64,000 nucleotides of DNA from positions 1 to 64,000 of the IMG/VR virus record IMGVR_UViG_3300033489_000005; one strand, given 5' to 3'. This document shows, piece after piece, positions 1,978-63,578 of this stretch. Position numbers and translations under genes: made by a program. The stretch is from a virus. Position 1 is the first letter of the stretch; the number at the start of each line of letters is the position of its first letter. A model generated the notes under the pieces. It was given only the letters and a program-made list of their open reading frames with translations. It had not been told where the DNA came from and ran no database searches.

Positions 1978-2688
1978 ATGTCTTTTACCTATTCAACGTT
2001 TTTGACCGCGCTTGCTCAAGAAATCGCGATCACTACGACAAATCCTGACTTTCAGGCTATACTTCCGACGTTTATCCAGAACGCGGAGTTGAGGATTTTT
2101 CGTGACCTCGACCTATTGTCGACTGTTTTTCGTGACGCCGCGCTTACCCCGGCGCACAACCAGCGCTCACAGACGCTGCCGCAGACCTACGGGCAGTTTG
2201 TGGTGGTTGAGGGGGTCAACTTCATGAATCAGACAGTGCGTTTAAACGCTCTCACCCCCTGTTCGCGTGAGTTCATTGACGGACTGTTCCCAACCGAGAC
2301 CGCCCCGGCGTCGACCTCATCGCCCCGGTTTTTCGCCCGAGACACGGACCAAACGATTCTGGTGGCCCCCTCATTGGGGAACGGATACGCCACACCCAGT
2401 CTCGAAGTCGTGGGGACCGTGCGCCCCAATCCGCTCAGCGCGACCACGACCACGACGTTCATTTCGCAGAATCTGCCGGACCTGCTGCTCTATGCGGCCA
2501 TGGTTGAGGCGACGGGGTGGATGAAAAACTATGGCGCGCAGGCTGAAGACCCGAAGATGGGGATGAGCTGGGAGTCCCGGTATCAGGGCGCGCTCAGCCC
2601 GGCGCTGTCCGAAGAGACGCGGAAAAAATTCCAATCAGGCTCATGGTCCGCGAAGTCCAGGCCGATGAGCCAGCCGGAAAGGGTGTGA
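1978..2688 (+). CDS. virion structural protein, possibly tail tubular/adaptor protein (T7 gp11-like position)
   Basis: 236-aa ORF immediately upstream of a 686-aa ORF and the internal-virion-protein block. The assignment rests on size and order only. Confidence 0.4.
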   Translation: MSFTYSTFLTALAQEIAITTTNPDFQAILPTFIQNAELRIFRDLDLLSTVFRDAALTPAHNQRSQTLPQTYGQFVVVEGVNFMNQTVRLNALTPCSREFIDGLFPTETAPASTSSPRFFARDTDQTILVAPSLGNGYATPSLEVVGTVRPNPLSATTTTTFISQNLPDLLLYAAMVEATGWMKNYGAQAEDPKMGMSWESRYQGALSPALSEETRKKFQSGSWSAKSRPMSQPERV

Positions 2689-2689
2689 T

Positions 2690-4750
2690 ATGGGCGTCTC
2701 CACCGTCACCCTCAGACCAGGGCTCAATGTCGAGATTACGCCGACCCAGAACCAGGGCGGCTATACCGTAACCCAGCTCGGCCGCTACAAGGCCGGGCTG
2801 TTTCAGAAAATGGGCGGCTGGGCGAAGTTTTTTCCCGTGAAGGTCGACGGGGTTTCTAAGGTCTCTCATACATGGCGCGACCTTGCCGGGAACAATCATT
2901 TATCCATCGGCACGACAGCCGACTTGGATGTAATCACCAATGGCGTTTATCGAGATGTATGTCCGCAAACCCTAACGACGAACCCAGCTGTCAATTTTGC
3001 AACGACGATAAACACAAATATCGTCACTATTACTGACACTGCAGTCAATAATATCACCAATTATGATGCAGTATTCTTGAATACGCCTATATCTGTTGGC
3101 GGTCTGAATCTATCTGGGTTATATCAGGTTGCGGCCAATATCTCGCCTACATCCTACCAGATTTATGCTTCGTCGCTGGCGACCGCGACCGTCGTTGCGC
3201 CCGGCGGCGCTGCGCCAGCGTTCACAACCGTATCCGGCTCGGCGCTGGTCACCGTCACCTTCGCCAACCACGGCCTGCAGGCGGCCTATGATATCGTGTT
3301 CCCCATCGCTACCACCACGGGCGGCGTCACGATTCTTGGCCGGTACGAGGTGGTCAGCATCATAGACGCCAACAACTTTATCATCAGCGCCACGAACGCG
3401 GCGTCATCGGCGGCCGGGCCAACGCCCATGAACGGCGGGCTGGCGCAATTCCTATACTACATCGCCATCGGCCCCCAGGCGCTCGCCGGAGCATACGGAG
3501 CCGGGCCGTATGGCGCCGGGCCATACGGCATCGGGACGCCGATTACTGGCCAGACAGGAACCGATATCCAGGCTGTCGACTGGTCCTTGGACCACTGGGG
3601 CGAGCTGCTGATGAGCTGCCCCAAGAACGGCCCTATCTTCTATTGGGGGCCGTCATCCGGGTTCGTGAACAGCTCTGTGGTTCCGGCCGGGCCGCCGATT
3701 AACACCGGCATGTTCGTGAGCACCAACAATCAGTTCGTCATCGCATACGGCTCGACGTCGTATGCGTCCATCGGCGTGTATCAGGACCCGCTGCTCATCC
3801 GGTGGTGCGACGCCAACAACTTTTTCAACTGGCAGCTGTCAGCGGTCACCCAGGCGGGCAGCTGGCGCCTGTCATCCGGCTCCCAAATCATGGGCGGCGC
3901 GTCGACGCAGCTGCGGAATCTAGTCTGGACCGATAAAGATCTCTGGGTGAGTTCCTACATCGGCTCGACCCTGGTGTTCAATATGGTCAAGACGGCCGAG
4001 GGGGCCGGGATGATTGCCCAACACGCGTGGGGCAAGCTGGGGGACACCGTCTACTGGATGGGGCAGAAAAATATCTGGGCGTACGACAACAGTGGCCCGC
4101 GCATCGTGCCGTGCCCGGTGTGGGACGCCATTTTTCAGGATATGGACCCGAACCACATGGATAAATGCTTTGTTGGCGTCAATAAAGCATTTAGCGAGAT
4201 TATGTTTTTCTGGCCTTCTGAGTCCGGCGCCCTTGGTTATTGTGACAAGATGGCCAAGATGAACATCGAAGAGGGGGCGTGGGACCTCTCTAGCATTCAG
4301 AGAAACACATGGACAGATGTTGATACATTCAACTATCCCATAGCAACTACAAATGATGGGCTAATTTATTCCCATGAATACGGATATGATGCTGATGGGA
4401 ACGTCCTGAACCCCTATTTTGAAACAGGCTATTTCTACATCAGCGACGGAGAAGACAAAGTTTTCGTCGACCGAATCTATCCTGACTTCAAGTGGGGTGA
4501 ATATAACGGCACCCAGAACGCCAATATGCTGATTACAATCAAGGCTATTGACGAAATGGGGCAGATAACGCCAGATGTCTATGGCCCGTTTCTGGTCACC
4601 AACACCTCGCGGTGGATTGAGCCACGGCTGCGCGGGCGGATGATTTCCATCCGCATCGAGAGCCAGGACGCCGGGTCATTCTGGCGGCTCGGCGCGGTGC
4701 GCTTCAGATGGTGCCCGGATGGCCGGGCTGGAGGGTTGAACAATGGTTGA
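2690..4750 (+). CDS. large virion structural protein, possibly tail tubular/nozzle protein (T7 gp12-like position)
   Basis: 686-aa ORF starting 2 nt after the previous stop. The assignment rests on position and size. It contains lower-GC patches (about 2880-3130 and 4150-4560). Confidence 0.4.
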   Translation: MGVSTVTLRPGLNVEITPTQNQGGYTVTQLGRYKAGLFQKMGGWAKFFPVKVDGVSKVSHTWRDLAGNNHLSIGTTADLDVITNGVYRDVCPQTLTTNPAVNFATTINTNIVTITDTAVNNITNYDAVFLNTPISVGGLNLSGLYQVAANISPTSYQIYASSLATATVVAPGGAAPAFTTVSGSALVTVTFANHGLQAAYDIVFPIATTTGGVTILGRYEVVSIIDANNFIISATNAASSAAGPTPMNGGLAQFLYYIAIGPQALAGAYGAGPYGAGPYGIGTPITGQTGTDIQAVDWSLDHWGELLMSCPKNGPIFYWGPSSGFVNSSVVPAGPPINTGMFVSTNNQFVIAYGSTSYASIGVYQDPLLIRWCDANNFFNWQLSAVTQAGSWRLSSGSQIMGGASTQLRNLVWTDKDLWVSSYIGSTLVFNMVKTAEGAGMIAQHAWGKLGDTVYWMGQKNIWAYDNSGPRIVPCPVWDAIFQDMDPNHMDKCFVGVNKAFSEIMFFWPSESGALGYCDKMAKMNIEEGAWDLSSIQRNTWTDVDTFNYPIATTNDGLIYSHEYGYDADGNVLNPYFETGYFYISDGEDKVFVDRIYPDFKWGEYNGTQNANMLITIKAIDEMGQITPDVYGPFLVTNTSRWIEPRLRGRMISIRIESQDAGSFWRLGAVRFRWCPDGRAGGLNNG

Positions 4751-5120
4751 GTTTAGGGCGACCGCCCAACAGTCGCGGGGTGGCGGCGATATCGATATGC
4801 TGGCGCAGGCGAACGGCCTGAACGCCAACATAGGACAGCTCATATCCGTTATGAAGAGCCGGTTCGCCTTGAGCGCCTTCAACGGGTCTTTCACCATGGG
4901 CGCTGTCGTCACCCAGGTTATCCCGGACGTGAACGCCAAGGCGAACTCGATTATCTGGCTGGTCGCCGATAACGCAGCCGCCGCGACCATGCAGGCGACG
5001 ACCAAGAACGCCTACGTCTCGGCGAAGGCGGCCGGGACCAGTTTCACCGTGGCGACGGCGGACGGGACGGCGGCGACCGGCGGCCAGATTTTCAGCTATG
5101 TTATCTTGAACGTGGGGTGA
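4743..5120 (+). CDS. hypothetical virion protein
   Basis: 125-aa ORF with an 8-nt ATGGTTGA overlap onto the upstream stop. An alternative start at 4797 is possible. Confidence 0.6.
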   Translation: MVEFRATAQQSRGGGDIDMLAQANGLNANIGQLISVMKSRFALSAFNGSFTMGAVVTQVIPDVNAKANSIIWLVADNAAAATMQATTKNAYVSAKAAGTSFTVATADGTAATGGQIFSYVILNVG

Positions 5121-5123
5121 GCC

Positions 5124-5870: not shown

Positions 5871-6349
5871 ATAAAAGCAATGTCCAGCCATTGCCCCACG
5901 TAAGAGTAGCAGTCGCAGGTGATTTTAATGACCTAATCAGAATGGGACACGAGGTTTTTGCCGAAAACGGGCTTATGACGCTCAATGAAGACATGATTCG
6001 TACGGGGGCTCTGAGAGCTATTGAAGGCGTTGATTCTGTTGTAGGATGTATTGGCCCTGTTGGCGCGCTTGAGGCGGCAATTCACCTGTCTATGCGTCAT
6101 TTCTGGTACACTGAGCAGGCGCATCTTGAGGAGCTATGGGCGTTCGTCCGGCCTGAATTCAGGAAAACGAGGAACGCACAGGCTCTTATTGAGTTTGCTA
6201 AGAATTTAGCGGTGGAGTTAAAGAGACCTCTGTTAATAGGTGTTCTGTCATCGCATAGAACCGAAGCTAAAGTTAAGATGTATCGACGTAAATTGGGGGC
6301 TCCATCGGGGGCGTACTTCCTCTATAATGCTAAAACAGGGGTTGGATGA
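5867..6349 (+). CDS. hypothetical protein, possible GNAT-fold acetyltransferase
   Basis: 160-aa low-GC ORF with an ATGA overlap. VRPEFRKTRNAQALIEFAKNLA resembles GNAT motif A, but the match is weak. Confidence 0.4.
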   Translation: MNKSNVQPLPHVRVAVAGDFNDLIRMGHEVFAENGLMTLNEDMIRTGALRAIEGVDSVVGCIGPVGALEAAIHLSMRHFWYTEQAHLEELWAFVRPEFRKTRNAQALIEFAKNLAVELKRPLLIGVLSSHRTEAKVKMYRRKLGAPSGAYFLYNAKTGVG

Positions 6350-9300
6350 TGGGCGGCGGCTCTCAGAATCAGGACACTAGCCAGACGTACACGCCGAACG
6401 CTGAAGCCATGAGCGCGTTCAGGGGCGTCATGAGCGGCGCGCAGGGCGTCGCCAACCGGAACCAGACCTGGAATCCGGCCATGGCGCAGCGCGTCGCCGG
6501 TCAGAACGCCATGCAAACGCAGGGGTATTCCGGCATTCAGGGCCAGCTGGGGCAGTACTCGCCCCAGGTTAACGAGGCCCTTGGAATGACCAGCGCCGCC
6601 GGTCAGAACATCACCGGCGAGGACATTTCCCGTTATCAGAACCCCTACACCCAACAGGTCATAAACGCCACGATGGCCAACGCCCAGCAGCAGCAGGGCG
6701 CAGGCATGGCGAACGTGGTAGGCAACCAGATTGCTCAGAACGCCCAAGGCGGCGACCGGGCGATGCTGCAGAAGGCGCTCACTCAGGGCCAGTACGCCAT
6801 GGCCAACAACCAGACAATCGCCGGGCTGGAGCAGCAGGGCTACAACACCGCGCTCGCCACCGCGCAGGGGGAGAAAGGGCGCCAGCTGCAGGCGGGCATG
6901 GGCCTCATGAGCGAGGCTGGCGCGGCGCAGAATTACAATCTGCAGGGCCTCGGCGCGATGATAGGCGCGGGCGGAGCACAGCAGGGGCAGCAGCAGAACG
7001 AATACAACGCCGCGACCCAGAACGCGACCAGTCAGACCATGTGGCCGATGCAGCTTCAGCAGTGGCTCGCGGGCATTACCGGCTCGATGGGTTCGCTGAT
7101 GGGCGGCACCACCACCGGCACGTCGCAGACAACTGAGCACCCAGGCTTCTACAACTATCTCGGCGCGGGCATGGGCGGCCTGTCGGCGATGTCCGACGAG
7201 CGCGTAAAAGAGAATAAGCGCGAAGTTGGCGAGCTGTTCGACGGTCAGAAGGTTTATGCGTTCAACTATAAGGGCCACCCCACGACCCAACTCGGGTTGA
7301 TGGCGCAGGAAGTTGAGCGCCGTCATCCGGAGTCCGTTGGCCAGACCGAGGACGGCGTAAAAACCGTTCAATACGACATGGCCACCGACCGCGCGGCCAA
7401 GCGCGGCAACTTCGCCGATGGCGGGGCGCCGGGGTTCGGCGGCTCGAACCCATGGGATACGGCGAGCAGCCCGTGGGGCTCGCTTATCCAGAGCGCGCCG
7501 CAGATTCATTCAGGCGGGTTCAACCCGCCGGTCGCCGCCGGTACGGCCCCCGCGCCCATGTCTTCAAAAGATAAGGAACAGCGCGAGCAGGCCCAACAGG
7601 GCAAGCAGGGCGGCCAGGGCATGAAGGATATCTACAACAAATACCTCAACAAAGAGGGAACGGGAACGCCCGGCAGTACGGGAACGCCTTCCACAGCCAA
7701 CGGATGGGAGGCAAAAACCGTGCCTTCCAGCGAACTTGGCGGCTCGACGGATTTGACGGTGACCACCCCCGTTGAGACGGTGAGCGAAAGCACGTCTGGC
7801 CTTGGGAGCATGGGCGCAAGCGCCCCCGCGAGCGCGGCCCCATCGAGCATGATGGGCGCGGCCCCGGCGGGCGCAGGCGCAGCGGCTCCAATAGGAGAGG
7901 CTGCAACCGGGTTCGGCGGCGCGGCTACTGGGGCTGGAGGCGCGAGTCTCGCCAGCACTGGTTCTCTTGGCGCGGCTCTGTCGGCTGGGATGGGCGGCGC
8001 GGGCGCAGCCGGAGCTGCTGGAGCTGGCGCGGCGGGAGCCGGAGCCGCTGGCGCGGCGGGAGCCGGAGCCGCTGGCGCAGGCGCGGCCGGAGCTGCCGGA
8101 GCGGGCGCGGCCGGAGCTGCAGGGGCAGGCACGGCTGCAGCCGGTTCAGCTGCGGCTGCGGGCGCGGCTGGCGCGGGCGGCGCGGCCGGAGGCGGCCTCG
8201 GGGCGCTGATTGGCGCGCTCTTTTCAGACGAGCGCATGAAAGAGAACAAGCGCGTCGTGGGCCGCACGTTCGACGGTCAGAACATCTATGCCTACAACTA
8301 CAAGGGCCATCCCATGACCCAGCTCGGGTTGATGGCGCAGGAAGTGGAGAAGCGTCACCCCGGCTCCGTGGGCGAGCACGGCGGCATGAAGACGGTTCAA
8401 TATGACCGGGCGATTCAGGCGGCGTCCAGGCGCGGCCACTTCGCCAACGGCGGCGACGCGTCCAGCAACGATGATATGCGCCGCCATGCGGAGCGCATGC
8501 TGCATCTGGCGTCCGGCGGCGCGGCGCAGAACTTCGCCGATGGCGGCGAGCCGTTCATCAATCCTGACGAATTTACCTTTGACGCGCCGGAGCCCTATGA
8601 GCCCACAAAACGTGATTATGGCCATTTCGATCCATATGGCGGCGTCTCCGCTAGCGGGAATATAGAGAATATGATTCCCGGCGGGTTTTCAGCAAAACGG
8701 GCATACCGGAGGGAGCAGGCAGACAACGCCTATAATCTGAAAAACCCGGAAGACAGCCAAAAAGACACGACTGAAACACCGCTGGATACGCCAGATATTC
8801 GTGATGGCATGTGGCGCAGTCCGCACGAACAGCGCACGCATTTTGACCCGTACATGGGCAAATTCCCTGTCATGGAGCCCATCGTTCCGCATGAGCAGGT
8901 GAAAACCATGGTCCGCGCGCCAGAGGTTCCTGAACCAGGGGAGCCAAAAGGCCGGGCGCTTCCTGACTATGCGCCAAAACTCTCGCATGAGATGTTATCG
9001 GACCGGCCGCTGACTTCCGCGCCCGTGGCGACCGCGCTTGCGGAAGCGAAGATGGCGCGCAACCAGGGGCTCGACCAGCCTCCGGAGACCATGGCGCGCG
9101 GCCGGTTACCGGCTGAAGGGGCCGGGCAGCGCCCATCGTTCGAAATTCCCAAGTTCCCGGCTGGCGTCGACGTGGCGGACGTCGGCCGCGCCGCGATAAA
9201 CAAAATCACCGACCCCTATGCGGAGGCCCTGCGCGAAAGAGTATCGGATGCTGGCGGCCTGTATGCGCAGGCCGGGAGAGAGGCTCGCGGTCTTGCGCCT

Positions 9301-12168
9301 AATCTGCGCCTCCCCACGCGCGCCGATGTCACGGAGCTTATGCGCTCGGCGCGCGGCGCTGGCGAGATGGCGGCCGATTATGCTTCGCCAGGCTCCCGGA
9401 TGGAGCGCGCGCAGGCCGCAGACGCCGCAGGCGAGTTCAAATGGAACCCGGCTTCCGGCCGCTCGGAATTTATCTCGGGCGAGCAGCTGGCGCGCGAGCA
9501 GGCGGCGAAAGGAACGCCGCGCCTCGATGCAGAGCGCGGGCAAAGCATCCAGCCGGGAACGCCTTTTGAGGGCGGCCCGCCGCTCCCAGAACGCAGGCCT
9601 GCGACTCCGGCCGCCGCCGAACCCGTTCCGCCCATGCCGGAGCGCAATATTGTCGAGCAGTCCAGGCTTGAGGCGGAGCGCGCCCTTGAGGATGAAAAGC
9701 GCGCCAAGCTTCTGCGCTACTTTGAGGCCGCTCAGGATGCAGTGCGTTTAAACGCTCCCGCTGCTGGCGGCGTGACGCCGGAGGCCGCCGCAGAGCGCGG
9801 ACACGCTGACCGCGCGGCCATCATGGACACGCTGAAGCAGTATTTCCCCCATACGCTCGGCGGCGAACCGATTACGCCCGCCGCGCCAGCTGCAGCGCCC
9901 GCAGAAGCGCCGCGCCAGCATGGGCCGGAGGCGTATCCTAAGGAACTCGGGCTCGGCGACGTCGCGCCAACCAAAGTCCATTCTCAGGAACTCACTGATT
10001 TAGAAAAGGACCTGCAGACAAAAGTCGAGCCTTACTCGGCGGCTGTCGGCGCGCCCAAGGCGCAGACTTTCCAGGAACAGCAGCCGGACCGGTACGCGGC
10101 GGGGGCTCAAACCTCCATGACCAAACGGCTTAAGTTTGAGAACGACTTGGGCGGCGTGACGCGGGACACCGGCGGCAACCCATCCATGGGCAATTACGGC
10201 ATCCTCGCCCGCAAGGGCGGCGCGTCTTCAGGAAGCGACTTTTACGACAACTACGGCGAAAAGCTCGGGTTCACCCATGACCCGCGCCATGACCCGTGGG
10301 GGTTCGCCGCCGATTGGAAGCGCGTCGCCAAGGACAACCCGCAAGGGCTGGAGGCCGCAGAGGACGCGTGGCACAACAAGTTCATCAAAGGCTCCGTGCG
10401 CGCCCACGTTCTGAACGCAAATCTCCCCGGAACGCTCGCCGATGACCCGCGCGTGCAGGAGTACTTTCAGGACCGGTACGTGCAGCACGGCACCGGCATC
10501 AGCAAGGACCCGAACGGCCGCAACGGCGCGGGCCGTCTGAAGCAGGCTTGGGCGAAGGCCGAGGGCGATATCCCGACTTTCTTGAAAGAAATGTCGGCCA
10601 TCGACAAGGCCCATATCCGCCACGACTTTGAGACGTATCTGAGCGAGCATCCCGACCACCAGCCGGGCCTTGAAAAGCGCATCAGCAACCGGCTCGCCGG
10701 GGCGCTTGGCGAAAAGGTTCAGCCGGGCGGAACTTCGGAGCAGGTCACCCAGGCGGCTTCCGATAAGAAGGAGACTGCCGCGAACACGCCGAAGTCGGCG
10801 GCCGAGCTGCTCCCGCACGAGCAGGACCAAGTCGGGTTCATCAAGAAAATCATGGGCGGTTGGAACCCGCTCGAAGGCGTCACCGGCCCTGGAAAAGAGG
10901 GAAAAGACAGTTGGAACCCCCTCGGGCTGACGTCGGACCAGCGCCGCAACCTTATGATGACCGGCCTGCAGATGGCGGGCGGCTCGCCGCTGGGCATGCG
11001 GGCGCTCGCGGGCGGCGCGTCCGGCATGCAGGCCGCGCAGCAGATGCAGATGAACGAGCAGAGCATGGGCATCCAGCGCGCTAAGCTGGCGCTTGACGCC
11101 ATGAACCAGCCGAAGTTCTCGCCGGTTCACTGGACCGACTTCATGGGTATGCAGCACGCGGGCTCGATGGACGTGCACAGTGGCGCGATAACCGAGGCCG
11201 GGCAGACTGCGCCCGTGCCAGCAGGCAGCATTGCGCCGGGGACCGTGCAGGCGGCGCCCGAGGCCGGGGGAGCCGGAGCGCCAGGGGCAGGCGCGGCCGA
11301 CCAGCCAACCGGCAACGCTCAGATAGACCAGATGTTCAAGCAGTATCCGGAGGCTCGCGGCACTGTAGAGGGCCTGCTTGACGGCCGGTTCACGCTTCAG
11401 CAAATCCCGACCCGCCAGCGCGCCGGAATGGAAATGGCGGCGAACGCCGTGGCCAGGACGCGCGGCGAGGTCTACGACCCCGTTAAAATTCAGAAGCAGA
11501 GCGACTTTGAGAAGGACTTTTTAAAGCCCGACTCCAAGACCGCAATCCAGGTCGAGAGCCTGAACCGCGCCAGCGAACATATCGGCACCATGATGGGTCT
11601 GAGCGAGCAGCTTGGCGCAAACACCGGGCTCGGCGACTACCTGTCCGGCAAGGCGGCCGACAACATCACCATGATGCGCGACCCCAAGCGCGAACAGTAC
11701 CGGGTTATGGGTCGCGCCATCGCTTCCGAGCTGGCTAAACTGGAGTCCGGCGGCAAGGGCGCGCAGAAGACAACCGAAGAGTGGGAGTCCATGTTCGACC
11801 CGAGCTTGCCGAAGGCGGTCCGGGACGGCAACATCATGCAGGCCTTCAATATCATGAAGGGCAACATGAAAGGGCTCGACCAGAAGTGGATTAACGGCGC
11901 CCGCAGAGGGAAAAACGGACCGACAATCGACTATATGGCCCCTGAAGTGCGGCAGAACATGCACACCGCGCAGCTCAGATATGAGCAGGCGACCGGCCGC
12001 ACGCCGGAAGGGACTAAGTCAACGGTCGAGAGGCCCCCGGCTCCCATTCCTGAAATCCGGGAACAGCTTGGCCGCGCTCTGAAAAAAGCGGATACGCCGG
12101 AGAAAAAGGCGGCTATCCTTGAGCGCGCTAAGAAGTGGGGCGTTTACGGACTGGAGACTCAGCAGTGA
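6346..12168 (+). CDS. giant (1940 aa) internal-virion/ejection-type polyprotein with two peptidase-S74-like intramolecular chaperone domains
   Basis: Uninterrupted ORF. Two homologous segments, SDERVKENKREVGELFDGQKVYAFNYKGHPTTQLGLMAQEVERRHPESV (7192..7425) and SDERMKENKRVVGRTFDGQNIYAYNYKGHPMTQLGLMAQEVEKRHPGSV (8224..8454), match the S74 pattern SDxRxKxN...GxxAQEVexxxPexV. Confidence 0.7.
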   Translation: MMGGGSQNQDTSQTYTPNAEAMSAFRGVMSGAQGVANRNQTWNPAMAQRVAGQNAMQTQGYSGIQGQLGQYSPQVNEALGMTSAAGQNITGEDISRYQNPYTQQVINATMANAQQQQGAGMANVVGNQIAQNAQGGDRAMLQKALTQGQYAMANNQTIAGLEQQGYNTALATAQGEKGRQLQAGMGLMSEAGAAQNYNLQGLGAMIGAGGAQQGQQQNEYNAATQNATSQTMWPMQLQQWLAGITGSMGSLMGGTTTGTSQTTEHPGFYNYLGAGMGGLSAMSDERVKENKREVGELFDGQKVYAFNYKGHPTTQLGLMAQEVERRHPESVGQTEDGVKTVQYDMATDRAAKRGNFADGGAPGFGGSNPWDTASSPWGSLIQSAPQIHSGGFNPPVAAGTAPAPMSSKDKEQREQAQQGKQGGQGMKDIYNKYLNKEGTGTPGSTGTPSTANGWEAKTVPSSELGGSTDLTVTTPVETVSESTSGLGSMGASAPASAAPSSMMGAAPAGAGAAAPIGEAATGFGGAATGAGGASLASTGSLGAALSAGMGGAGAAGAAGAGAAGAGAAGAAGAGAAGAGAAGAAGAGAAGAAGAGTAAAGSAAAAGAAGAGGAAGGGLGALIGALFSDERMKENKRVVGRTFDGQNIYAYNYKGHPMTQLGLMAQEVEKRHPGSVGEHGGMKTVQYDRAIQAASRRGHFANGGDASSNDDMRRHAERMLHLASGGAAQNFADGGEPFINPDEFTFDAPEPYEPTKRDYGHFDPYGGVSASGNIENMIPGGFSAKRAYRREQADNAYNLKNPEDSQKDTTETPLDTPDIRDGMWRSPHEQRTHFDPYMGKFPVMEPIVPHEQVKTMVRAPEVPEPGEPKGRALPDYAPKLSHEMLSDRPLTSAPVATALAEAKMARNQGLDQPPETMARGRLPAEGAGQRPSFEIPKFPAGVDVADVGRAAINKITDPYAEALRERVSDAGGLYAQAGREARGLAPNLRLPTRADVTELMRSARGAGEMAADYASPGSRMERAQAADAAGEFKWNPASGRSEFISGEQLAREQAAKGTPRLDAERGQSIQPGTPFEGGPPLPERRPATPAAAEPVPPMPERNIVEQSRLEAERALEDEKRAKLLRYFEAAQDAVRLNAPAAGGVTPEAAAERGHADRAAIMDTLKQYFPHTLGGEPITPAAPAAAPAEAPRQHGPEAYPKELGLGDVAPTKVHSQELTDLEKDLQTKVEPYSAAVGAPKAQTFQEQQPDRYAAGAQTSMTKRLKFENDLGGVTRDTGGNPSMGNYGILARKGGASSGSDFYDNYGEKLGFTHDPRHDPWGFAADWKRVAKDNPQGLEAAEDAWHNKFIKGSVRAHVLNANLPGTLADDPRVQEYFQDRYVQHGTGISKDPNGRNGAGRLKQAWAKAEGDIPTFLKEMSAIDKAHIRHDFETYLSEHPDHQPGLEKRISNRLAGALGEKVQPGGTSEQVTQAASDKKETAANTPKSAAELLPHEQDQVGFIKKIMGGWNPLEGVTGPGKEGKDSWNPLGLTSDQRRNLMMTGLQMAGGSPLGMRALAGGASGMQAAQQMQMNEQSMGIQRAKLALDAMNQPKFSPVHWTDFMGMQHAGSMDVHSGAITEAGQTAPVPAGSIAPGTVQAAPEAGGAGAPGAGAADQPTGNAQIDQMFKQYPEARGTVEGLLDGRFTLQQIPTRQRAGMEMAANAVARTRGEVYDPVKIQKQSDFEKDFLKPDSKTAIQVESLNRASEHIGTMMGLSEQLGANTGLGDYLSGKAADNITMMRDPKREQYRVMGRAIASELAKLESGGKGAQKTTEEWESMFDPSLPKAVRDGNIMQAFNIMKGNMKGLDQKWINGARRGKNGPTIDYMAPEVRQNMHTAQLRYEQATGRTPEGTKSTVERPPAPIPEIREQLGRALKKADTPEKKAAILERAKKWGVYGLETQQ
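7987..8190 (+). repeat. Ala/Gly low-complexity coding repeat (GAAGAAGAGAAGAG...)
   Basis: Reiterated gccggagc(c/t)gc(t/c)gg units at the DNA level. They encode about 68 aa of (A/G)n between the two S74-like domains. Confidence 0.85.
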
Positions 12169-47460: not shown

Positions 47461-47486
47461 CAGCGAGGCGTTTAAACGCCTCGCTG
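47461..47486. repeat. 26-bp perfect palindrome CAGCGAGGCGTTTAAACGCCTCGCTG
   Basis: Lies 8 nt downstream of the stop of 46878..47453. Confidence 0.95.
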
Positions 47487-47550
47487 ACTATTCGAAATAT
47501 GCACGAATATTGATATTCCAGAATACATGTTATGCGAATGGAGAGACGAC

Positions 47551-47868: not shown

Positions 47869-47886
47869 TATCAATGAGTTATCAAT

Positions 47887-47910
47887 GCGAGAGCGTTTAA
47901 ACGCTCTCGC
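47887..47910. repeat. 24-bp perfect palindrome GCGAGAGCGTTTAAACGCTCTCGC
   Basis: Lies 19 nt downstream of the stop of 47551..47868. Confidence 0.95.
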
Positions 47911-47984
47911 CATACGCCAACGATATCAATGGGTTAGTATACATTTACACATTTGAGTATTCCATAACACAGGGGCTAGCTCCC

Positions 47985-48006
47985 GTGAAACATTTAAATG
48001 TTTCAC
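47985..48006. repeat. 22-bp perfect palindrome GTGAAACATTTAAATGTTTCAC
   Basis: Intergenic, centred on ATTTAAAT, upstream of the tRNA and the late genes. Confidence 0.95.
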
Positions 48007-53016: not shown

Positions 53017-55175
53017 CGGAGCAAATTATGCTAAATACGGCTCAAGTCTTTGACTTTCAGAAATATATTGACGAACAGCCGTCATTTGAGCCGCAGGGCG
53101 TTCGGTTTTCAGAAAGTAATGACGCTCTGGTTATTGATGAGCCGGACGGCGGCGTCACTATCGAGTTCAACCCGCGAAATCATAACGTCAAGGCTGGGCG
53201 CGCGGACCACAACGCGAATCTGGCGGAGTTCATTGATGAGGGCGACCTCAACGCCCTGGCTGTTGACCTGATTGAGGGCATCGAGGAAGACCGCCGGAGC
53301 TTTTCGGAGTGGCTGCAGACGCGGGCGAACGGGGTCAAGCTGCTTGGGTTCAAGGTCGAGGAGCCGCGCAGTGACTTGGCGTCCACGTCCGCCCCCCTTG
53401 AGGGCATGTCGACAGTTCGGCATCCGCTGCTCGGCGAGGCGTGCCTGCACTTTCAGGGAAACGCCCGTCGTGAGATGATTCCGAGCAATGGACCGGCGAA
53501 AATCGCCGTTTATGGCGGCCAGACCGCCGTGAAAGACTGGCTGGCGGAGAAATTAGAGTCAGAAATCAACTGGTATCTGACCAAAAAGGCCACTGAATTC
53601 ACCCCTGGCACCGACCGTCTCCTGTTCATGGTGGGGTTCTCGGGCATGGCGTTCAAAAAGGTGTATTTTTGCCCGATGCGGCGCCGCCCGGTCTCCGAGA
53701 TGGTGGACGCCGAGCACTTCGTGGTGGCCAACACCACCACAGACATTCAGACCACGCCGCGCGTGACCCACATCATCCCCATGCAGCAGACGACGTTTAA
53801 ACGCATGCAGTTGCTGGGGGTCTACCGGGACATTCCCATCCAGCGGCCGGACGCCAACATCAACGCCTTTGACGCCGCCGTGGCGCGCTCCCAGGGCATC
53901 AGCCTCAATGTGACCCGTCCAGAAGACCAAGTGCACACGATCTACGAATGTTATGCCGATGTCGACCTCCCCGAGTTTGAGCACCATCTTGATGGAGAGC
54001 CCACAGGCCTTCCGCTCCCTTATCGAATCACCATTGACCTCACGTCACGAGCAATTCTGGAAATCAGAAGGGATTGGGACGAAGGCGACGAGGATTTCAT
54101 CCGGAGACGCACTTTCGTTCCCTTTGGCTTCGCCCCAACCTTCGGGTTCTACTGCACTGGTCTCCTTCAGATACTCGGTAACGCGACGTCTGCCCTGACC
54201 GGCGCATGGCGCCTGCTGCTCGACGCCGGGATGTTCAGCAACTTCCCCGGCTTCCTCTACGCCAAGAACGGCGCGAAGCAGAGCAACAACACGTTTCGCG
54301 TCCCGCCCGGCGGCGGCGCGCCCGTCGACGTGCCCGGCGGCGTCAAGCTGGCCGACGCCATCATGCCGTTGCCGTATAAGGAGCCGTCGCAGACCCTTAT
54401 CGCCTTGACCCAGACCATCGGCGCGGCCGGGCAGAAACTTGGCGGGACAGCCGAGCTGCCGACCGCCGAGGGCAAGGCTGACGTGCCCGTTGGCACGATG
54501 CTCGCCGCCATTGAGCAGGCCGGGAAAATCCTGAACGCGGTGCATACGCGGCTTCATGACGCGCAGACAGTTGAGCTGGAATTGATTCTGGAGCACCTGC
54601 GCCAGCATCCCGAGGCCCTGTACCGGCCCGACCCGGACCAGCCGCTCTGGACCCTGGACATGGTCAGGCAGGCCCTGGCCAACTACAATCTCGTGCCCCG
54701 GTCCGACCCGAACACCCCGAGCCATGCGCACCGGCTGATGAAGGCCATCGCCCTTGGGACAGTGGCGCAGCAGACGCCGCCCGGCGTGTTCGACCCGAAG
54801 AAGATTGCGACGCGCGTGCTGCACATGATGCAGATTGATGACGTTGACGACCTGTTTATGCCGCCGCCGCCCCCTGGCGCCGCGCCGCCGCCCAACCCGG
54901 AGCAGATTAAGGCGCAGTCGGCCATGCAGACGAACCAGGCTAAGCTGGCGACCGCCGCGCAGACCAGCCAGACCAAGATGGCGGATATCCAGGCCCGCGT
55001 GCAGGTCGAGATGGCCAAGATGGACCATGAGAAACAGCTTGAATATATGCGCCTGATGCAGCATTTGGTAACGCATCCCCTTGCCGCGCACATCTTTGGT
55101 TTGGGGGGAGAAACAGGGGGTCAGGGGCAGGTTCCAGCCATGCCCGGAGGTTATGACCCGTTAGCCCAACAGTGA
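53013..55175 (+). CDS. portal protein
   Basis: 720-aa ORF directly after TerL (GTG at 53013 overlapping the TerL stop; alternative ATG at 53028). The assignment rests on size and position. Confidence 0.65.
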   Translation: MTEQIMLNTAQVFDFQKYIDEQPSFEPQGVRFSESNDALVIDEPDGGVTIEFNPRNHNVKAGRADHNANLAEFIDEGDLNALAVDLIEGIEEDRRSFSEWLQTRANGVKLLGFKVEEPRSDLASTSAPLEGMSTVRHPLLGEACLHFQGNARREMIPSNGPAKIAVYGGQTAVKDWLAEKLESEINWYLTKKATEFTPGTDRLLFMVGFSGMAFKKVYFCPMRRRPVSEMVDAEHFVVANTTTDIQTTPRVTHIIPMQQTTFKRMQLLGVYRDIPIQRPDANINAFDAAVARSQGISLNVTRPEDQVHTIYECYADVDLPEFEHHLDGEPTGLPLPYRITIDLTSRAILEIRRDWDEGDEDFIRRRTFVPFGFAPTFGFYCTGLLQILGNATSALTGAWRLLLDAGMFSNFPGFLYAKNGAKQSNNTFRVPPGGGAPVDVPGGVKLADAIMPLPYKEPSQTLIALTQTIGAAGQKLGGTAELPTAEGKADVPVGTMLAAIEQAGKILNAVHTRLHDAQTVELELILEHLRQHPEALYRPDPDQPLWTLDMVRQALANYNLVPRSDPNTPSHAHRLMKAIALGTVAQQTPPGVFDPKKIATRVLHMMQIDDVDDLFMPPPPPGAAPPPNPEQIKAQSAMQTNQAKLATAAQTSQTKMADIQARVQVEMAKMDHEKQLEYMRLMQHLVTHPLAAHIFGLGGETGGQGQVPAMPGGYDPLAQQ

Positions 55176-55182: not shown

Positions 55183-56037
55183 ATGAATGACGTCGTCCAG
55201 AACGGCTTTCGGATTCACATCGAAACCAAGCAACTCGCCGAGGGCCTGCTTGCGTCCGAGGCCTATTTTCAATTCCCAGGCACGACGGTTGTCGTCTGCC
55301 TGTTGACCACGCACCACGGCCATCATGCGGTTGGTTCGAGCTATTTTCCCGACCCGATGGAGTTTGAAGACGCCCTCGCCCGTCAGGGTTCGCGTGAAGA
55401 CGCGATGGAGAAGCTTTTCCCTGTCGCGGACTATCTTTATCGGGAGAGACGGTACAACGACGGCGCGACGCTTGAGCCGGCTGTTCCCGCGCCTGTTGTT
55501 CAAGAGGTGGGGATGGGCTATTCAATCACGCGGGTTCCCATTGTGGAGGCCATGACGCGCCCGCCCATCGTTGAGCCGGGCGGCATTAAGTTCATTGAGC
55601 GGGACGCGCCCCCGTTCGTGTACAGCGACGTCGGTCCGGAGGAGTTGAGCGCGGCGATGGTCGAGGTAGTCGAGGATGATATCGCCGAGGTCATCACCCG
55701 TATGTATGCGGCCATGAAGGCCAAAAAGGAAACCCGGAAGGAAGTCTATCAGCGCGAGCTTGAGCGCCTTGGTCAGGAAATGGATCAGCAGCTTGCCGCC
55801 GAGATTGAGGCGACCAAGCAGTACACGGCGGGCGCGGGCGAAGAGCTTATTGCCGAGATTGCCGCCACTCTTCACAAGGGCGACCTGATTACCGCCGACG
55901 AGGCGGCCCGCGTCTCAGGGGGAGCGGCGATGGCGTCGTTTAAACGCTCTGACCTCGTGCGCGACTCCATGGTGAGCGGCGACGGCGTCGCGCTGATATC
56001 TATCACGCATCCCGGTTCAGTGGAGGATATGGAATGA
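55183..56037 (+). CDS. hypothetical head-module protein (N-terminus reminiscent of the N4 gp49 / Sf6 gp66 family)
   Basis: TTVVVCLLTTHHGHHAVGSSYFPDPMEFEDALARQGSREDAMEKLFPVADYLYRE. The match is from memory only. Confidence 0.4.
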   Translation: MNDVVQNGFRIHIETKQLAEGLLASEAYFQFPGTTVVVCLLTTHHGHHAVGSSYFPDPMEFEDALARQGSREDAMEKLFPVADYLYRERRYNDGATLEPAVPAPVVQEVGMGYSITRVPIVEAMTRPPIVEPGGIKFIERDAPPFVYSDVGPEELSAAMVEVVEDDIAEVITRMYAAMKAKKETRKEVYQRELERLGQEMDQQLAAEIEATKQYTAGAGEELIAEIAATLHKGDLITADEAARVSGGAAMASFKRSDLVRDSMVSGDGVALISITHPGSVEDME

Positions 56038-58148: not shown

Positions 58149-59198
58149 ATGTCCAGGCGGAAAAGAGCGGCTGCAGCGCAGCTTGAACAGATGGCCAGCG
58201 CGCGCGAGGCGGCGCCCGAGATTGAGTTCGAGGTCGTTGACGAGTCAGGCGTGGTTATCGCCGAGTCGTTGAGCGACGAGATTATCATCGAGCATGCGGA
58301 GGAACACGCCCCGGCGTATGAGCAGCGCGCCGAGGAAGAGCCGGACGCGCTGACCAAGCTCAAGGCGCAGTACGCTGAGCGCGAGACGGAGATTCAGCGG
58401 CTCAAGCGCGAGCGGGCGGAGGCCGAGCACCGGGCGAACGAGAACGCCAACCACGCCGTTCAGGGAGAGCGGAATTACCGTGAGGCGACAGTGGCGGCGG
58501 TGGAGAACGCCATCGCCCTGGCCAAGTCCAACATCAATCAGGCCCAACAGGCGGCGTCCCTGGCGGCGCAGCGCGGCGACTGGGATACGCACGCCAAGGC
58601 CCTGGCGGCGTTGACCGAGAACACCGCGCAGATTCAAAGTCTGGAGCGGGCGAAGTCAGATGTCGAGCGGGCCCCCGAACCAACGGCGCAGCACTATCAG
58701 CGCCCGCCCGATAACGACTTTGAAATGCAGATTAAGGCGTTCCCGCACAGGACCCAGGCGTGGCTCCGGGAGCATAAGGACGATATCTACCTGAACCAGG
58801 AACGCGCCATGCTGGCGGAGTCAGCGGCCAATCTGGCGCAGCGGAAGGGGATTGAAGTCGAGAGCCAGGACTACTTTGATTTCATTGACGAGCAGATGGG
58901 GTATAAAACCGTGACCAGCGATTCCAGGTCGAATGGCGGCTCCGGCGTCCCGCCAGTTCAGAGGAAGGCCCAGACGCCCGCCGCCCCTCCGGCCCGGACG
59001 TCATTTGGCGCGCCTCAGGGGAAGGGAAGGCGCGTGCAGCTCTCTCAAGAGCAGAGGAAGGCCGCCGTCCAGCTTTACGCTGACCTCCCCGAGCATGAGG
59101 CCCTGGCGCAGTACGCTAAGGGCGTCGCTGAAATCGACTCGGGCAAGTCCAACTTGCTCTGGTCAAGAGACAAGTATAAGGGAGGCGTCGGTGTCTAA
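58149..59198 (+). CDS. scaffolding-like protein
   Basis: 349-aa, Ala/Glu/Gln-rich coiled-coil-type sequence lying between portal and capsid. Confidence 0.5.
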   Translation: MSRRKRAAAAQLEQMASAREAAPEIEFEVVDESGVVIAESLSDEIIIEHAEEHAPAYEQRAEEEPDALTKLKAQYAERETEIQRLKRERAEAEHRANENANHAVQGERNYREATVAAVENAIALAKSNINQAQQAASLAAQRGDWDTHAKALAALTENTAQIQSLERAKSDVERAPEPTAQHYQRPPDNDFEMQIKAFPHRTQAWLREHKDDIYLNQERAMLAESAANLAQRKGIEVESQDYFDFIDEQMGYKTVTSDSRSNGGSGVPPVQRKAQTPAAPPARTSFGAPQGKGRRVQLSQEQRKAAVQLYADLPEHEALAQYAKGVAEIDSGKSNLLWSRDKYKGGVGV

Positions 59199-59997
59199 AC
59201 CCCCATACAATTGGCGCAAGACCGAGAAAACACCGGTCGCCAAGCCCGTAATCAAGAAACCACCCGAGGTTGAGGAACCCATGACAAAAGCGCCTCAAGC
59301 GTCTGATCCCGTCGCCATTGAGGCGCTTACGATTCAGATGGCGCAGCTCGCATCTATGATGGCCGAGTCCCAAAAGCAAATGGCGGAGCAGATTACCGCG
59401 CTCGGGAGACAGGTCGCCGAGGACCGCAAAGAGGTGCGCGTCGAAGCTGCGCGGCCCAAGCGCCCCCAGGCTCGGGAAACCGGGATTACTACGGCGATTG
59501 GCCGCGACGGTGAAGTTGTCACGCGCCGGGCGCAGTTTGCGTCCAGTGACCCTTTCGAGCTGCCGCCCGAATTCGTGGAGGCTACTTTAGCCGAGGGATA
59601 TACTCTTGAATGGAAAACCCGGTTCGTCTACAATGAGGAGCGCGGAGTTTATATTTCTCGACTCCAAAGAGATGGCGGATGGCGACCTGTTAAGAATAGC
59701 AGGCTACTCGGCGTCTTCTCTGGTGAAGAAGAGGAGGCTGTTCAACACGATGGTATGATTTTGATGGAGCGTCGCGTAGAGTTAACCAACGCAGCGCGAC
59801 GTGAGGAACAGATTAGCGCCCGTGAACAGCTTTTGATGCGTCAACGGAATTGGGGTGTCGATTCGAAACGGGAAGACTATTTCGACCCGAACACCCAGGA
59901 AGCACAGAAGCATACGCTTTTGAGAGCGCAGCGTGAGCGGGCGGACCCATCATGGGCTCCATCGCACACTATCGCTGGAGGCGACGAGTTTTCGTAA
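59191..59997 (+). CDS. hypothetical head-morphogenesis protein
   Basis: GTG at 59191, 5 nt after GGAGG, overlapping the scaffold stop. An alternative ATG lies at 59281. It is the in-frame portion of track ORF 58933..59997. Confidence 0.55.
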   Translation: MSKPPYNWRKTEKTPVAKPVIKKPPEVEEPMTKAPQASDPVAIEALTIQMAQLASMMAESQKQMAEQITALGRQVAEDRKEVRVEAARPKRPQARETGITTAIGRDGEVVTRRAQFASSDPFELPPEFVEATLAEGYTLEWKTRFVYNEERGVYISRLQRDGGWRPVKNSRLLGVFSGEEEEAVQHDGMILMERRVELTNAARREEQISAREQLLMRQRNWGVDSKREDYFDPNTQEAQKHTLLRAQRERADPSWAPSHTIAGGDEFS

Positions 59998-60006: not shown

Positions 60007-60032
60007 GTCCAGACCGTTTAAACGGTCTGGAC
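60007..60032. repeat. 26-bp perfect palindrome GTCCAGACCGTTTAAACGGTCTGGAC
   Basis: Lies 10 nt downstream of the stop at 59997. Confidence 0.95.
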
Positions 60033-62370: not shown

Positions 62371-62384
62371 GGGAGAGCCCCGTA

Positions 62385-63329
62385 ATGGCTAAGTCAACTA
62401 TCAGCGGCCCTTTCATCGTCTACGGGAACGAGGCGACCCCTCCGGGGATGGCCGCCCGGTCCGCGAACCAGAACCCGGACGCGGGGCCGAGCGTCTTCTA
62501 TGGCGGCGTGGCGTCTCTTGACCCGCGCCCCATTTTCACGTTCTTCCCCGGTCAGACGCCCGGCTCGCCGCCGGTTCTCGCCTGGATGAGTTCGGATATC
62601 ATGGCCGTTGACTTCGCCCCCCTGGCTGCGGCCACGGCGAACCTCGCGGCCCTGCAGGGCAACACGATAAACGTTCCTCTCACGCTGGTCACCGTCAGCG
62701 GGGGAGACGTCACCGTTGGCGACACGTTCAAGAACGCGTCGACTGGCGCCACGGTCACCGGCGCCCGGCGCATCGGTCCAAAACCCGCCGTGCTCCCAGT
62801 CGGCTCGTCCGGGCTGGTGAACTTCTGGGACCCCGCAACCGTCAGCAGCCGGGCGGTGTCCATCACCTCCGGCACGACCACGCTTGCGGGCATCACCTAC
62901 ACCGTTGTCGGCTATGACGTGTTCGGCCAGCCCCAGACCGAGGCCATCACCGGCCCTGGCGCGGGCCTGACTGTCAGCGGCAAGAAGACCTGGAAGTGGA
63001 TTGCCAGCGTGACCCCCTCGGCGACCAACGCCGCGACGGTCAGCATCGGGACTCCGGATATTTTCGGCTTCCCAATCAAAGTCGCTTCCTATCCGTACGT
63101 CCAGGTGTATTGGAATAACGTCCAGCAGCTGACGGCCACGGTCACGGCTGCCGACGCCACATCTCCAGCCACCACGACAACTGGCGATGTGAGGGGAACT
63201 TTCACGCCGGGTTCGGCTGCAAACGGAACCATTCGCATGGTGGCGTTCGTCAATATCCCAGTGGCGGGCATTGCGGTGACTTCAACAGCAGCCCTGACCA
63301 CGGCCATGTTTGGCGTAACGCCAGTATAA
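62385..63329 (+). CDS. virion structural protein (hypothetical)
   Basis: 314-aa Thr/Ala/Gly/Val-rich ORF in the structural module. Confidence 0.6.
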   Translation: MAKSTISGPFIVYGNEATPPGMAARSANQNPDAGPSVFYGGVASLDPRPIFTFFPGQTPGSPPVLAWMSSDIMAVDFAPLAAATANLAALQGNTINVPLTLVTVSGGDVTVGDTFKNASTGATVTGARRIGPKPAVLPVGSSGLVNFWDPATVSSRAVSITSGTTTLAGITYTVVGYDVFGQPQTEAITGPGAGLTVSGKKTWKWIASVTPSATNAATVSIGTPDIFGFPIKVASYPYVQVYWNNVQQLTATVTAADATSPATTTTGDVRGTFTPGSAANGTIRMVAFVNIPVAGIAVTSTAALTTAMFGVTPV

Positions 63330-63341
63330 GGACAAGTCGAT

Positions 63342-63551
63342 ATGGCTAAGACTAAAGGCGGCCTCAGCTCCAAGACCCCGGCTTTCGCCGGGGGCAACAA
63401 GGACGTGATTAAAGAGGCCAAAGCCGGTAAGAACATTGGTAAGGTGGGCGGCGTCTCGCGCAAGCGCGGCGGGGCCTGCAAGGCCTCCGGCGGCGGCGCG
63501 GATACGTCCCCCTACAGCTCTGCGGGCCGGAGCCTGCGCAACAAGAGCTAA
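63342..63551 (+). CDS. small basic protein
   Basis: 69-aa Lys/Gly-rich ORF. Confidence 0.55.
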   Translation: MAKTKGGLSSKTPAFAGGNKDVIKEAKAGKNIGKVGGVSRKRGGACKASGGGADTSPYSSAGRSLRNKS

Positions 63552-63578
63552 CATCGAGAGCGTTTAAACGAGGCGACC

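Follow-up and report, generated by a model that had tools for sequence, protein, structure and literature searches.

A palindromic word dispersed through a tailed-phage genome resembles phage operators and is associated with an SprT-like zinc-ribbon gene

Short palindromic or conserved operators scattered over a mobile genome are known from both plasmids and phages. The KorA (GTTTAGCTAAAC) and KorB (TTTAGCSGCTAAA) operators of the IncP plasmid RK2 and the C1 operators of phage P1 occur in 7–17 copies, including at the regulator's own promoter. The stoperators of Cluster A mycobacteriophages (L5 gp71-type) are present in tens of copies, within and between genes and in addition at the early promoter, and are bound by a phage-encoded protein (PMC9283540, PMC6550527). 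A similar arrangement is described here for a stretch of 64,000 nucleotides of viral DNA, positions 1 to 64,000 of IMG/VR record IMGVR_UViG_3300033489_000005, which is referred to as the window throughout. It holds 22 exact copies of the 8-bp palindrome GTTTAAAC, two of them upstream of a gene (46878–47453) for a predicted SprT-like zinc-ribbon protein, the candidate reader of the motif.

The element is one that resembles dispersed phage operators yet departs from them: it is palindromic, it is conserved across phyla, and the window proteins that were scanned gave no match to an HTH (helix-turn-helix) repressor or an integrase. Stoperators are asymmetric sites of 13–14 bp oriented with transcription, whereas the window site is a perfect palindrome with symmetric flanks, and an asymmetric, orientation-biased form is met only as the one-base variant GTTTACAC in other phages. 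They are read by a monomeric HTH repressor of temperate phages, whereas the reader that we infer here is an SprT-like zinc-ribbon protease. Their specificities diverge between subclusters, whereas GTTTAAAC persists across hosts of 32–73% GC. The KorA, KorB and C1 sites differ in that they are read by HTH or ParB-type proteins, lie almost only at promoters and are not written into coding sequence by codon choice; the half-site GTTTA resembles the KorA operator, which may be chance. A zincin fused to a DNA-binding module and deployed early on entering DNA is found in ArdC of R388 and in Spartan/SprT, but ArdC binds single-stranded DNA without sequence specificity through its N-terminal domain (PMC7213743). 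Spartan reads DNA structure, neither protein has a dispersed cognate motif, and the window protein differs from both in having a C-terminal zinc ribbon and no sequence match to solved structures. T4-type early regions likewise repeat a stem-loop regulatory element between nearly all their small genes; those elements, however, are host-type promoters and stem-loops that are group-specific, absent from late genes and without a shared 8-mer. Cluster AZ Arthrobacter phages possess a conserved SprT-like gene whose C-terminus has been called a DNA-binding domain, with unexamined repeats nearby (10.1101/2025.05.26.655371). In the literature, no description was found of the motif words, or of SprT-like phage proteins linked to promoters, repeats or anti-defence.

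A pattern search of the 64,000 nt returned the 22 copies at the coordinates reported in an earlier note on this DNA, except that the copy placed there at 53794 starts at 53795. Dinucleotide shuffling gives an expectation of 0.61 ± 0.65 copies (maximum 2) and Markov models of order 0–3 give 0.50–0.81, an enrichment of about 30-fold; the rough estimate in that note, that the number lies far above expectation, was therefore right (22 vs 0.5–0.8). GTTTAAAC ranks first among the over-represented 8-mers of the window (z = 24.6), the next ranks being its own overlapping extensions, and 22 of the 33 occurrences of TTTAAA fall within it. Eighteen of the 22 copies have the extended form CGTTTAAACG, as had been noticed. 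Since exact copies outnumber all one-mismatch variants together (22 vs 9), recognition appears to be strict. Beyond the core, the 167 unique sites collected from other phages yield a symmetric 18-bp logo, R-n-R-G-Y-GTTTAAAC-R-C-Y-n-Y, with R at −5 in 149 and Y at +5 in 129 of the 167. The genic sites of the window agree with this independently derived consensus at 5–8 of 8 positions, about 3.6 being expected by chance, and the flank rule over 567 sites in motif-rich contigs is Y-GTTTAAAC-R. With crude open reading frame (ORF) calls, neither the distance from the motif to the next start codon nor use of the motif-internal TAA as a stop codon gave a clear signal against random positions. A second over-represented word family, four exact copies of GGTCCTGAACG at 43–233 with a 60-nt period, was rejected as a dispersed signal; it is a 20-aa (60-nt) tandem repeat inside the 5′-truncated first ORF (2–1237).

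GTTTAAAC is almost certainly a cis-element selected at the level of DNA. With the gene calls made here the copies divide into 11 genic and 11 intergenic, and the genic ones use the two reading frames described earlier, six encoding R-L-N (CGT-TTA-AAC) and five F-K-R/H (TTT-AAA-C). Comparable counts after synonymous-codon shuffling had been proposed as the outcome that would speak against selection; instead, 300 shuffles of 44.5 kb of coding sequence left 0.52 ± 0.69 copies (maximum 3) against the 10 observed. The proteome offers 27 positions able to encode GTTTAAAC, and 10–11 of them carry it, despite the rare TTA codon. Conservation in related phages, another check suggested at that time, was examined in four metagenomic relatives of 70–78% nucleotide identity (L002, L007, L009 and L010). 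They cover the orthologous genic positions 17559, 21246, 26006 and 50861, and the 8-mer is kept in 8 of 8 cases while flanking bases change. R-L-N is absent from 81 more distant polymerases, and the site tripeptides are likewise unconserved in distant helicases (21246) and in other portals (F-K-R, 53795). The 8-mer is kept but the tripeptides are unconserved at distance, so the protein sequence seems to have been bent to carry the DNA word. The codon shuffles, the conservation in relatives and the unconserved tripeptides thus agree with the earlier view that the constraint acts on DNA and not on protein.

The six R-L-N sites lie at 2240–2247 in the virion structural gene 1978–2688 and at 9746–9753 in the gene for a 1940-aa ejection/virion protein, 6346–12168 (7 of 8 consensus positions each); at 17559–17566 near the end of the last rightward gene, 17252–17653; at 21246–21253 in the helicase gene 20952–22634 and at 26006–26013 in the DNA polymerase gene 24683–26596, both on the minus strand; and at 50861–50868 in the large terminase gene 50221–53016. 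The sites at 17559, 21246 and 26006 are kept in L009 and L010, the last with different flanks, and that at 50861 is kept in L002 and L007. Four sites encode F-K-R: 12476–12483 in gene 12165–13982, with 8 of 8 consensus positions; 33328–33335 in the primase gene 33011–35533; 53795–53802 in the portal gene 53028–55175; and 55938–55945, 96 nt before the end of gene 55183–56037. The remaining one, 36590–36597, encodes F-K-H near the 3′ end of ORF 36036–36689. None of the genic sites is flanked by adjacent pairing arms (0–2 bp).

The motif is associated with one gene across phages. Exact searches of IMG/VR with the extended palindrome, and then for three GTTTAAAC within about 90 bp, returned viral contigs of 34–55% GC with 8–28 copies per ~10 kb, against 0.1–0.5 expected. 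When all ORFs of 42 motif-rich loci were compared, most of these loci coming from the three-in-~90-bp scan, the most widely shared gene was the homologue of 46878–47453 (25 loci, GC 34–57%), followed by the large terminase (17), primase (12) and portal (9). No other gene family co-occurs with the motif across motif-bearing loci within ±4 kb. The converse collection comprised 80 viral loci retrieved by homology to the SprT-like protein alone (39–47% identity, GC 32–73%). These contain 256 copies of GTTTAAAC against 11.3 expected, often as the top 8-mer and with at least four copies in 25 loci, and 200 copies of GTTTACAC against 22.7 expected, with at least four copies in 20 loci that are mostly high-GC and actinophage-like; a few loci carry other variants (CTTTAAAG, GTCCACAC, GGTTTGAC). 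A control set of 78 loci, retrieved by polymerase homology, contains 15 copies against 15.5 expected, and none of these loci has at least four (Fisher P = 7e-9 for GTTTAAAC alone and 1e-17 for either word).

The position of the sites also follows the gene. When loci are oriented on it, site density is near background from −10 to −1.5 kb, jumps at −500 and stays high for several kb downstream. A site lies 250 bp or less upstream of the SprT-like start in 26 of 78 loci, and inside the gene, at the conserved F98-K99 codons, in 29 of 80, compared with 4–8% for windows further upstream. In L007 the sequence TTGC-GTTTAAAC-GCAA stands 57 nt upstream of the SprT-like orthologue. Cultured phages show the same arrangement. 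E. coli phage vB_EcoM_ECO1230-10 has five GTTTAAAC against 0.48 expected (P = 1e-4), one of them with a perfect TATAAT 8 nt before it and the SprT-like Orf1 27 nt after it. Similarly, Microbacterium phage SuMoo has eight GTTTACAC in 18.6 kb of 70% GC against 0.11 expected, one just upstream of the SprT-like gp54. In actinophage-like loci the variant site is found in the spacer of promoter-like hexamers, over the −10 or just after it, and this varying register argues for placement as an operator and not as a core promoter element.

Natural losses within the protein are consistent with the ribbon being the part that matters for the motif. Four loci that have lost HExxH and kept the zinc ribbon (L091, L109, L152 and L157) are very motif-rich, with 17–26 copies, whereas Pseudomonas phage Epa5 and Bordetella phage CN1, which have lost the ribbon cysteines and KKQxTR, have 0 copies. 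L235 (IMGVR_UViG_3300010397_000548), with Ala for the near-invariant Arg of KKQxTR, carries the palindrome CTTTAAAG seven times in 6.3 kb (at 5125 and six other positions), one copy lying 32 nt upstream of the SprT-like start. Relatives of the window phage that have no member of this SprT-like subfamily, namely CRP-901, Caulobacter RW and MW202675.1, are also without the motif, the SprT gene of the last being of a different type (24% identical). An attempt to find the residues that set the GTTTAAAC or GTTTACAC class was abandoned: 13 of 20 GTTTACAC loci have lost the second zinc-knuckle cysteine, but the effect of this loss cannot be separated from that of phylogeny. A proposal that the terminase small subunit and a pac site are involved was likewise dropped, because in actinophages the motif peaks with the SprT-like gene, a long way from the terminase.

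Several further observations concern the words themselves in these phages. The asymmetric GTTTACAC is strongly orientation-biased within a genome, as in L209 (15 of 15), L202, L205 and L254, where it precedes small-gene families beginning ATGACGAACAAC, often after a GC-rich palindrome; the intergenic copies of SuMoo point the opposite way. In L121 (IMGVR_UViG_3300027697_000033, 41% GC) many sites stand between a GGAG-type ribosome-binding site (RBS) and the ATG, as GGGAGT-GTTTAAAC-ATG, one per small gene, and an ATG follows 0–1 nt after the site in 27 of 167 sites of other loci. At 30398 of ECO1230-10, GTTTAAAC overlaps the start of Orf39 (ATG-TTT-AAA-CGC, M-F-K-R), directly after an AAGGAG RBS. 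Two of the phages without the motif have words of their own: the palindrome TCGTACGA occurs 8 times in MW202675.1 against 0.9 expected, the copies at 20394 and 21318 lying in the loops of terminator hairpins with T-tails that closely precede its own SprT gene, and a different dispersed word, CGGACCTCAGCGG, occurs 22–36 times in positions 1–50000 of Caulobacter phage RW against 1–4 expected.

The window gene itself (46878–47453, plus strand) encodes 191 aa and is the first gene of the rightward arm of a low-GC block at 40–48 kb, in which about 20 small genes without assigned function form two divergent arms. It lies between a twin site (46772 and 46797) and a hairpin site at 47470, and the next gene is again followed by a hairpin site (47895). 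From its sequence and modelled fold the product is predicted to be an SprT-like metalloprotease with putative DNA-dependent protease activity. It has the zincin motif HELVH...H (HELVH at residues 81–85, the third ligand H94 being invariant in 44 homologues), the basic stretch KKQSTRLIK and a C-terminal zinc ribbon of four cysteines, CxxC...CPCC. The basic stretch and the ribbon are the most conserved part of the protein, which fits a DNA word that stays unchanged. The protein matches PHROG 6361, a family of no known function, and has no match in NCBIfam. Its AlphaFold2 model has a pLDDT of 92, and Foldseek against viral models retrieves the SprT of Bordetella phage FP1 (E = 5e-18) and further SprT-like proteins (E 1e-7 to 1e-3); sequence and fold searches of the PDB returned nothing significant. 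Homologues in Bordetella phages are annotated as antirestriction proteins.

As the only family that tracks the motif across phages, the SprT-like gene is the likeliest source of the reader. It is probable that the site is read by some phage-encoded factor, whereas the identification of that factor with the SprT-like protein is tentative, with a chance somewhat below even. The combined proposal, that GTTTAAAC is an operator-like site of a phage-encoded protein, most likely the product of 46878–47453, we hold to be about as apt to be right as wrong. The suggestion in the earlier note of a dispersed site for a dimeric phage DNA-binding protein is the best fit to the symmetric consensus and the operator-like positions, although the reader itself is one that we infer.

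According to this proposal, GTTTAAAC would be the core of a symmetric site of ~18 bp in double-stranded DNA, kept because a sequence-specific phage protein binds it. The C-terminal basic stretch (KKQxTRxxK) and the zinc ribbon would contact the DNA, either as a dimer or as two monomers on half-sites. The ancestral copy would have lain on or beside the promoter of the SprT-like gene, so that the protein would control its own expression as well as early transcription. Further copies would then have been recruited into nearly every spacer of the early leftward operon, where covarying arms of 8–11 bp would add a hairpin or cruciform, and these copies may regulate, or form the bounds of, each early gene. 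Codon choice would have brought still other copies into the late and replication genes, fairly evenly spread and 2–8 kb apart, so that the protein could be held at intervals over the entire genome; these copies may serve as regulatory sites of the roadblock type or may tether the protease. The lineage-specific arms may stabilise or end early transcripts. Junctions of single-stranded and double-stranded DNA activate Spartan-type proteases; that the arms offer such junctions is speculation. A bolder form of the proposal, which we regard as doubtful, makes the SprT-like protein a sequence-specific DNA-tethered metalloprotease whose ribbon reads GTTTAAAC, or GTTTACAC in actinophages, with a specificity kept from phages of Actinobacteria to those of E. 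coli and of low-GC hosts. Sites in promoters, spacers and coding sequences would in that case park the protease along the entering genome, where it would switch early transcription and/or clear host proteins off the DNA, silencers, translocating restriction complexes and repressors being examples.

Several points weigh against assigning the site to the SprT-like protein. The link is a correlation in a set of genomes that are fragmentary and partly related, and much of it could stem from common ancestry or from linkage within one early-gene module. Of the 80 loci retrieved with the gene, about 30 have an intact protein and show no enrichment; L196 and L240, for instance, have intact HExxH, KKQxTR and ribbon and are unenriched even when one mismatch is allowed. 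Several motif-rich fragments lack the homologue within the available stretch (L179, with 28 copies, among them), which is uninformative either way. The window protein scores 17.1 bits with the Pfam family SprT-like (PF10263), below the cut-off of 25.6 (E = 0.005); many of its homologues do carry PF10263. Zinc-binding domains of the SprT/Spartan type are known to bind DNA by structure and not by sequence. The covarying arms at eight sites indicate that base pairing is selected there, and not protein contact alone. Finally, the 13 sites outside the early cluster, within late and replication genes, are separated by gaps of 2.1–8.3 kb and are spaced more evenly than random (coefficient of variation 0.44, P about 0.003; smallest gap 2143 bp, P about 0.0006), but this test was post hoc, run once the data were known, and calls for caution.

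Part of this evidence would be met equally by an operator with another phage reader, be it a small early protein, a Bro-N protein or an actinophage sigma-like HTH protein, with the SprT-like gene as its first regulated target. A motif on the SprT-like promoter is just as much to be expected of a regulated target, and the ~30 loci with an intact gene and no motif are easier to accommodate. A sigma-like HTH gene adjoins the SprT-like gene in 11–12 actinophage-like loci and in Cluster AZ phages (10.1101/2025.05.26.655371), and the window has two Bro-N proteins as well as many unannotated small early proteins. The sigma-like protein, however, is absent from the window and from all loci of the GTTTAAAC type, and no other family co-occurs with the motif within ±4 kb across the motif-bearing loci. 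Moreover, a small regulator that evolves fast would hardly be expected to retain one 8-mer in phages as far apart as actinophages and those of E. coli, and where the zinc ribbon has gone the motif is missing too. Another phage reader is rather unlikely. Scans of the small early proteins, the Bro-N proteins and the other unknowns against Pfam, PHROGs and NCBIfam found no DNA-binding family, and no repressor, HTH or integrase family was matched among the window proteins scanned. The small HTH candidate at 28900–29217, once put forward as a possible reader, has no family match and no link to the motif; the gene that does track it across phages, 46878–47453, was not singled out at that time. The two Bro-N/Ant-like paralogues adjoin each other at 36857–37594 and 38786–39979; Bro-N is a DNA-binding domain, and they are alternative candidate readers.

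The window represents most of a novel tailed phage, about 64 of ~70 kb. The packaging and structural genes, among them terS (49566), terL (50221), the portal (53028) and the ejection protein (6346–12168), are read rightward, beginning at ~48.3 kb and presumably continuing round to 17.6 kb. The replication genes for DNA polymerase, helicase and exonuclease run leftward from 32 to 17.6 kb, and the primase and the two Bro-N proteins are encoded rightward at 33–40 kb. No close DNA relative was found among cultured phages. By polymerase (~30% identical) the nearest are Pseudomonas KPP25-like and Rhizobium phages, and by portal (28–46% identical) a Manatee Spring virome genome, pelagiphages of the HTVC023P type, roseophage CRP-901 and phages of the Caulobacter RW type. 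The family matches of the 931-aa large terminase (50221–53016) are split between residues 47–189 and 567–909, which suggests an intein or another large insertion, and the ejection/virion protein has a Peptidase_S74 domain, an intramolecular chaperone, at an unusual position near its N-terminus (residues 283–329). The early region at 40000–48000 has 45–51% GC compared with 55–65% elsewhere, and its codon usage is barely recognised as coding by codon-usage-based ORF scoring.

It is within this early region that most intergenic copies occur. The leftward operon (40153–46421, minus strand) has about 18 small genes in a stretch of 45–51% GC, and five of its spacers, of ~70 bp, hold a perfect palindrome whose core is 38–46 nt upstream of the next ATG. 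The first is the 24-bp palindrome GGGAGAGC-GTTTAAAC-GCTCTCCC at 42149–42172, in a 68-bp spacer, with its core 46 nt upstream of the ATG at 42111 and, as RNA, a folding energy of −22.1 kcal/mol (z = −5.8). The others are a 24-bp palindrome at 43934–43957 (spacer 43902–43967), one of 30 bp with 11-bp arms at 45293–45322 (spacer 45265–45334), one of 28 bp with 10-bp arms at 45680–45707 (spacer 45650–45721), and one of 30 bp with 11-bp arms at 46006–46035 (spacer 45980–46047), in which the flank pair is T..A and not C..G. An early spacer without the motif, 43031–43055, has a different hairpin, AGTAGGGCG-AATAAAT-CGCCCTACT. Another, at ~44643–44650, holds the site in decayed form, GTTTAACT, while relative L007 matches GTTTAAAC exactly at this place, from which it follows that sites are gained and lost.

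The twin sites 46772 and 46797 form the two 21-bp arms of one inverted repeat (46762–46814). They belong to the divergent control region (46422–46877, 456 bp) and precede the SprT-like gene by 81–106 nt; the repeat folds at −39.1 kcal/mol (z = −12.3). Directly after the SprT-like stop codon stands a 26-bp palindrome with 9-bp arms (47461–47486), and a 24-bp palindrome that is kept in L007 (47887–47910) lies downstream of gene 47551–47868. Outside the early region, the 26-bp palindrome TCCAGACC-GTTTAAAC-GGTCTGGA (60007–60032) is situated just after gene 59191–59997 and is not conserved in relative L001. The site at 63562–63569 is plain, with no palindromic extension, 10 nt upstream of the ATG at 63579 and with the RBS GAGG directly after it. 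The claim that all 11 intergenic copies stand at the centre of longer palindromes was therefore overstated. It holds for eight (42157, 43942, 45304, 45690, 46017, 47470, 47895 and 60016), with perfect arms of 8–11 bp, and not for 46772, 46797 and 63562.

These eight palindromes, of 24–30 bp, are the basis of a further explanation, in which the structure itself is the functional unit, as an RNA terminator, attenuator, processing or stabilising stem-loop or a DNA cruciform, and GTTTAAAC is its conserved tip. As RNA they form stems of 10–13 bp with a UUAA loop (ΔG −18 to −22 kcal/mol, z −4.7 to −8.8), and in the early region they occupy the ~70-bp spacers. The arms change by compensatory substitution between relatives. 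At site 43942 the core is kept in L007 with a compensatory change of G..C to T..A in the arm, and in the orthologue of site 47470 (L002 and L007) the arms are entirely different and again perfectly complementary. The related genome MW202675.1, moreover, has its own palindrome in T-tailed terminator hairpins. On the other hand, the 11 genic sites, the site at 63562 and ~95% of the 567 sites elsewhere are without arms, palindromic arms of at least 5 bp being present at only about 30 of the 567. The eight hairpins have the GC-rich stem-loop of a terminator and lack the U/T-tract after the stem; in a permissive terminator scan 43942 alone passed, and did so on both strands, and the counts from sigma-70 promoter and terminator scans of 40–49 kb equalled the shuffled expectation. 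The flank consensus is sequence-specific and symmetric, and base pairing by itself would not demand that the core be kept to the letter, as it is. A purely structural explanation is thus improbable, and the hairpin is probably a second layer at eight sites. N4-type hairpin promoters were set aside as well, given that no large window protein matches an RNA polymerase family, the sites are dispersed and most are not hairpins.

Recognition by the host could also be considered, the motif then being a promoter element used by host RNA polymerase or the site of a nucleoid protein. A universal recognition of the sigma-70 type could explain one word across very different hosts, TTTACA and TTTAAA resemble −35 hexamers, and the sites cluster in early control regions. 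However, the register relative to promoter-like hexamers is not fixed (spacer, over the −10, after the −10), the perfect TATAAT of ECO1230-10 is beside the site and not in it, and the motif is palindromic and occurs within genes of either strand. There is no enrichment in control phage loci (15 vs 15.5 expected), host GC ranges over 32–73%, and nucleoid proteins differ between these phyla. We consider a host reader quite improbable.

A little less probable still is that the word is the target of a DNA enzyme, whether for modification or restriction of the PmeI type, for site-specific nicking or for recombination that shuffles early cassettes. GTTTAAAC is the recognition site of PmeI, the preference for exact copies (22 vs 9 with one mismatch) is typical of restriction-type enzymes, and the early sites flank nearly every small gene, which recalls the repeated promoter and stem-loop elements of T4-type phages. 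Yet the window proteins that were scanned include no recognisable methyltransferase, restriction enzyme, nickase or recombinase, and the modification target, nicking target or restriction decoy raised in the earlier note is left unsupported. Restriction would moreover lead one to expect avoidance of the site and not enrichment, the variant GTTTACAC lacks palindromic symmetry, and the symmetric 18-bp consensus exceeds a restriction-type site. As for −1 ribosomal frameshifting, TTTAAAC is a classic slippery heptamer and six genic copies are in the required frame (CGU-UUA-AAC for slippage at U_UUA_AAC), but frame and location effectively refute it: five genic copies are in the other frame and eleven are intergenic (6 of 22 in frame), the sites are on both coding strands, the genic ones with their 0–2 bp arms have no downstream stimulatory structure, and the SprT-like association would go unexplained.

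Our study suggests that coding sequences of this phage have been shaped, through their R-L-N and F-K-R codons, to carry a DNA signal. Phage operators normally diverge fast, yet here the exact 8-mer or its one-base variant is the top over-represented word in phages whose hosts span 32–73% GC and whose virion types differ. All that these phages have in common is a widespread gene without an assigned role, the 'SprT-like protease' that SEA-PHAGES annotators meet in hundreds of actinophages, and the arrangement is present in the cultured phages vB_EcoM_ECO1230-10 of E. coli and SuMoo of Microbacterium. If the SprT-like protein reads the site, that gene family would gain a function, the early regions of metagenomic phages could be predicted from a regulatory code that is conserved, and a protease would for the first time be seen to be guided to particular DNA sequences. 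If the tethered form of the proposal is true, phages would possess a new pair of cis-element and protease and, with it, a new anti-host strategy.

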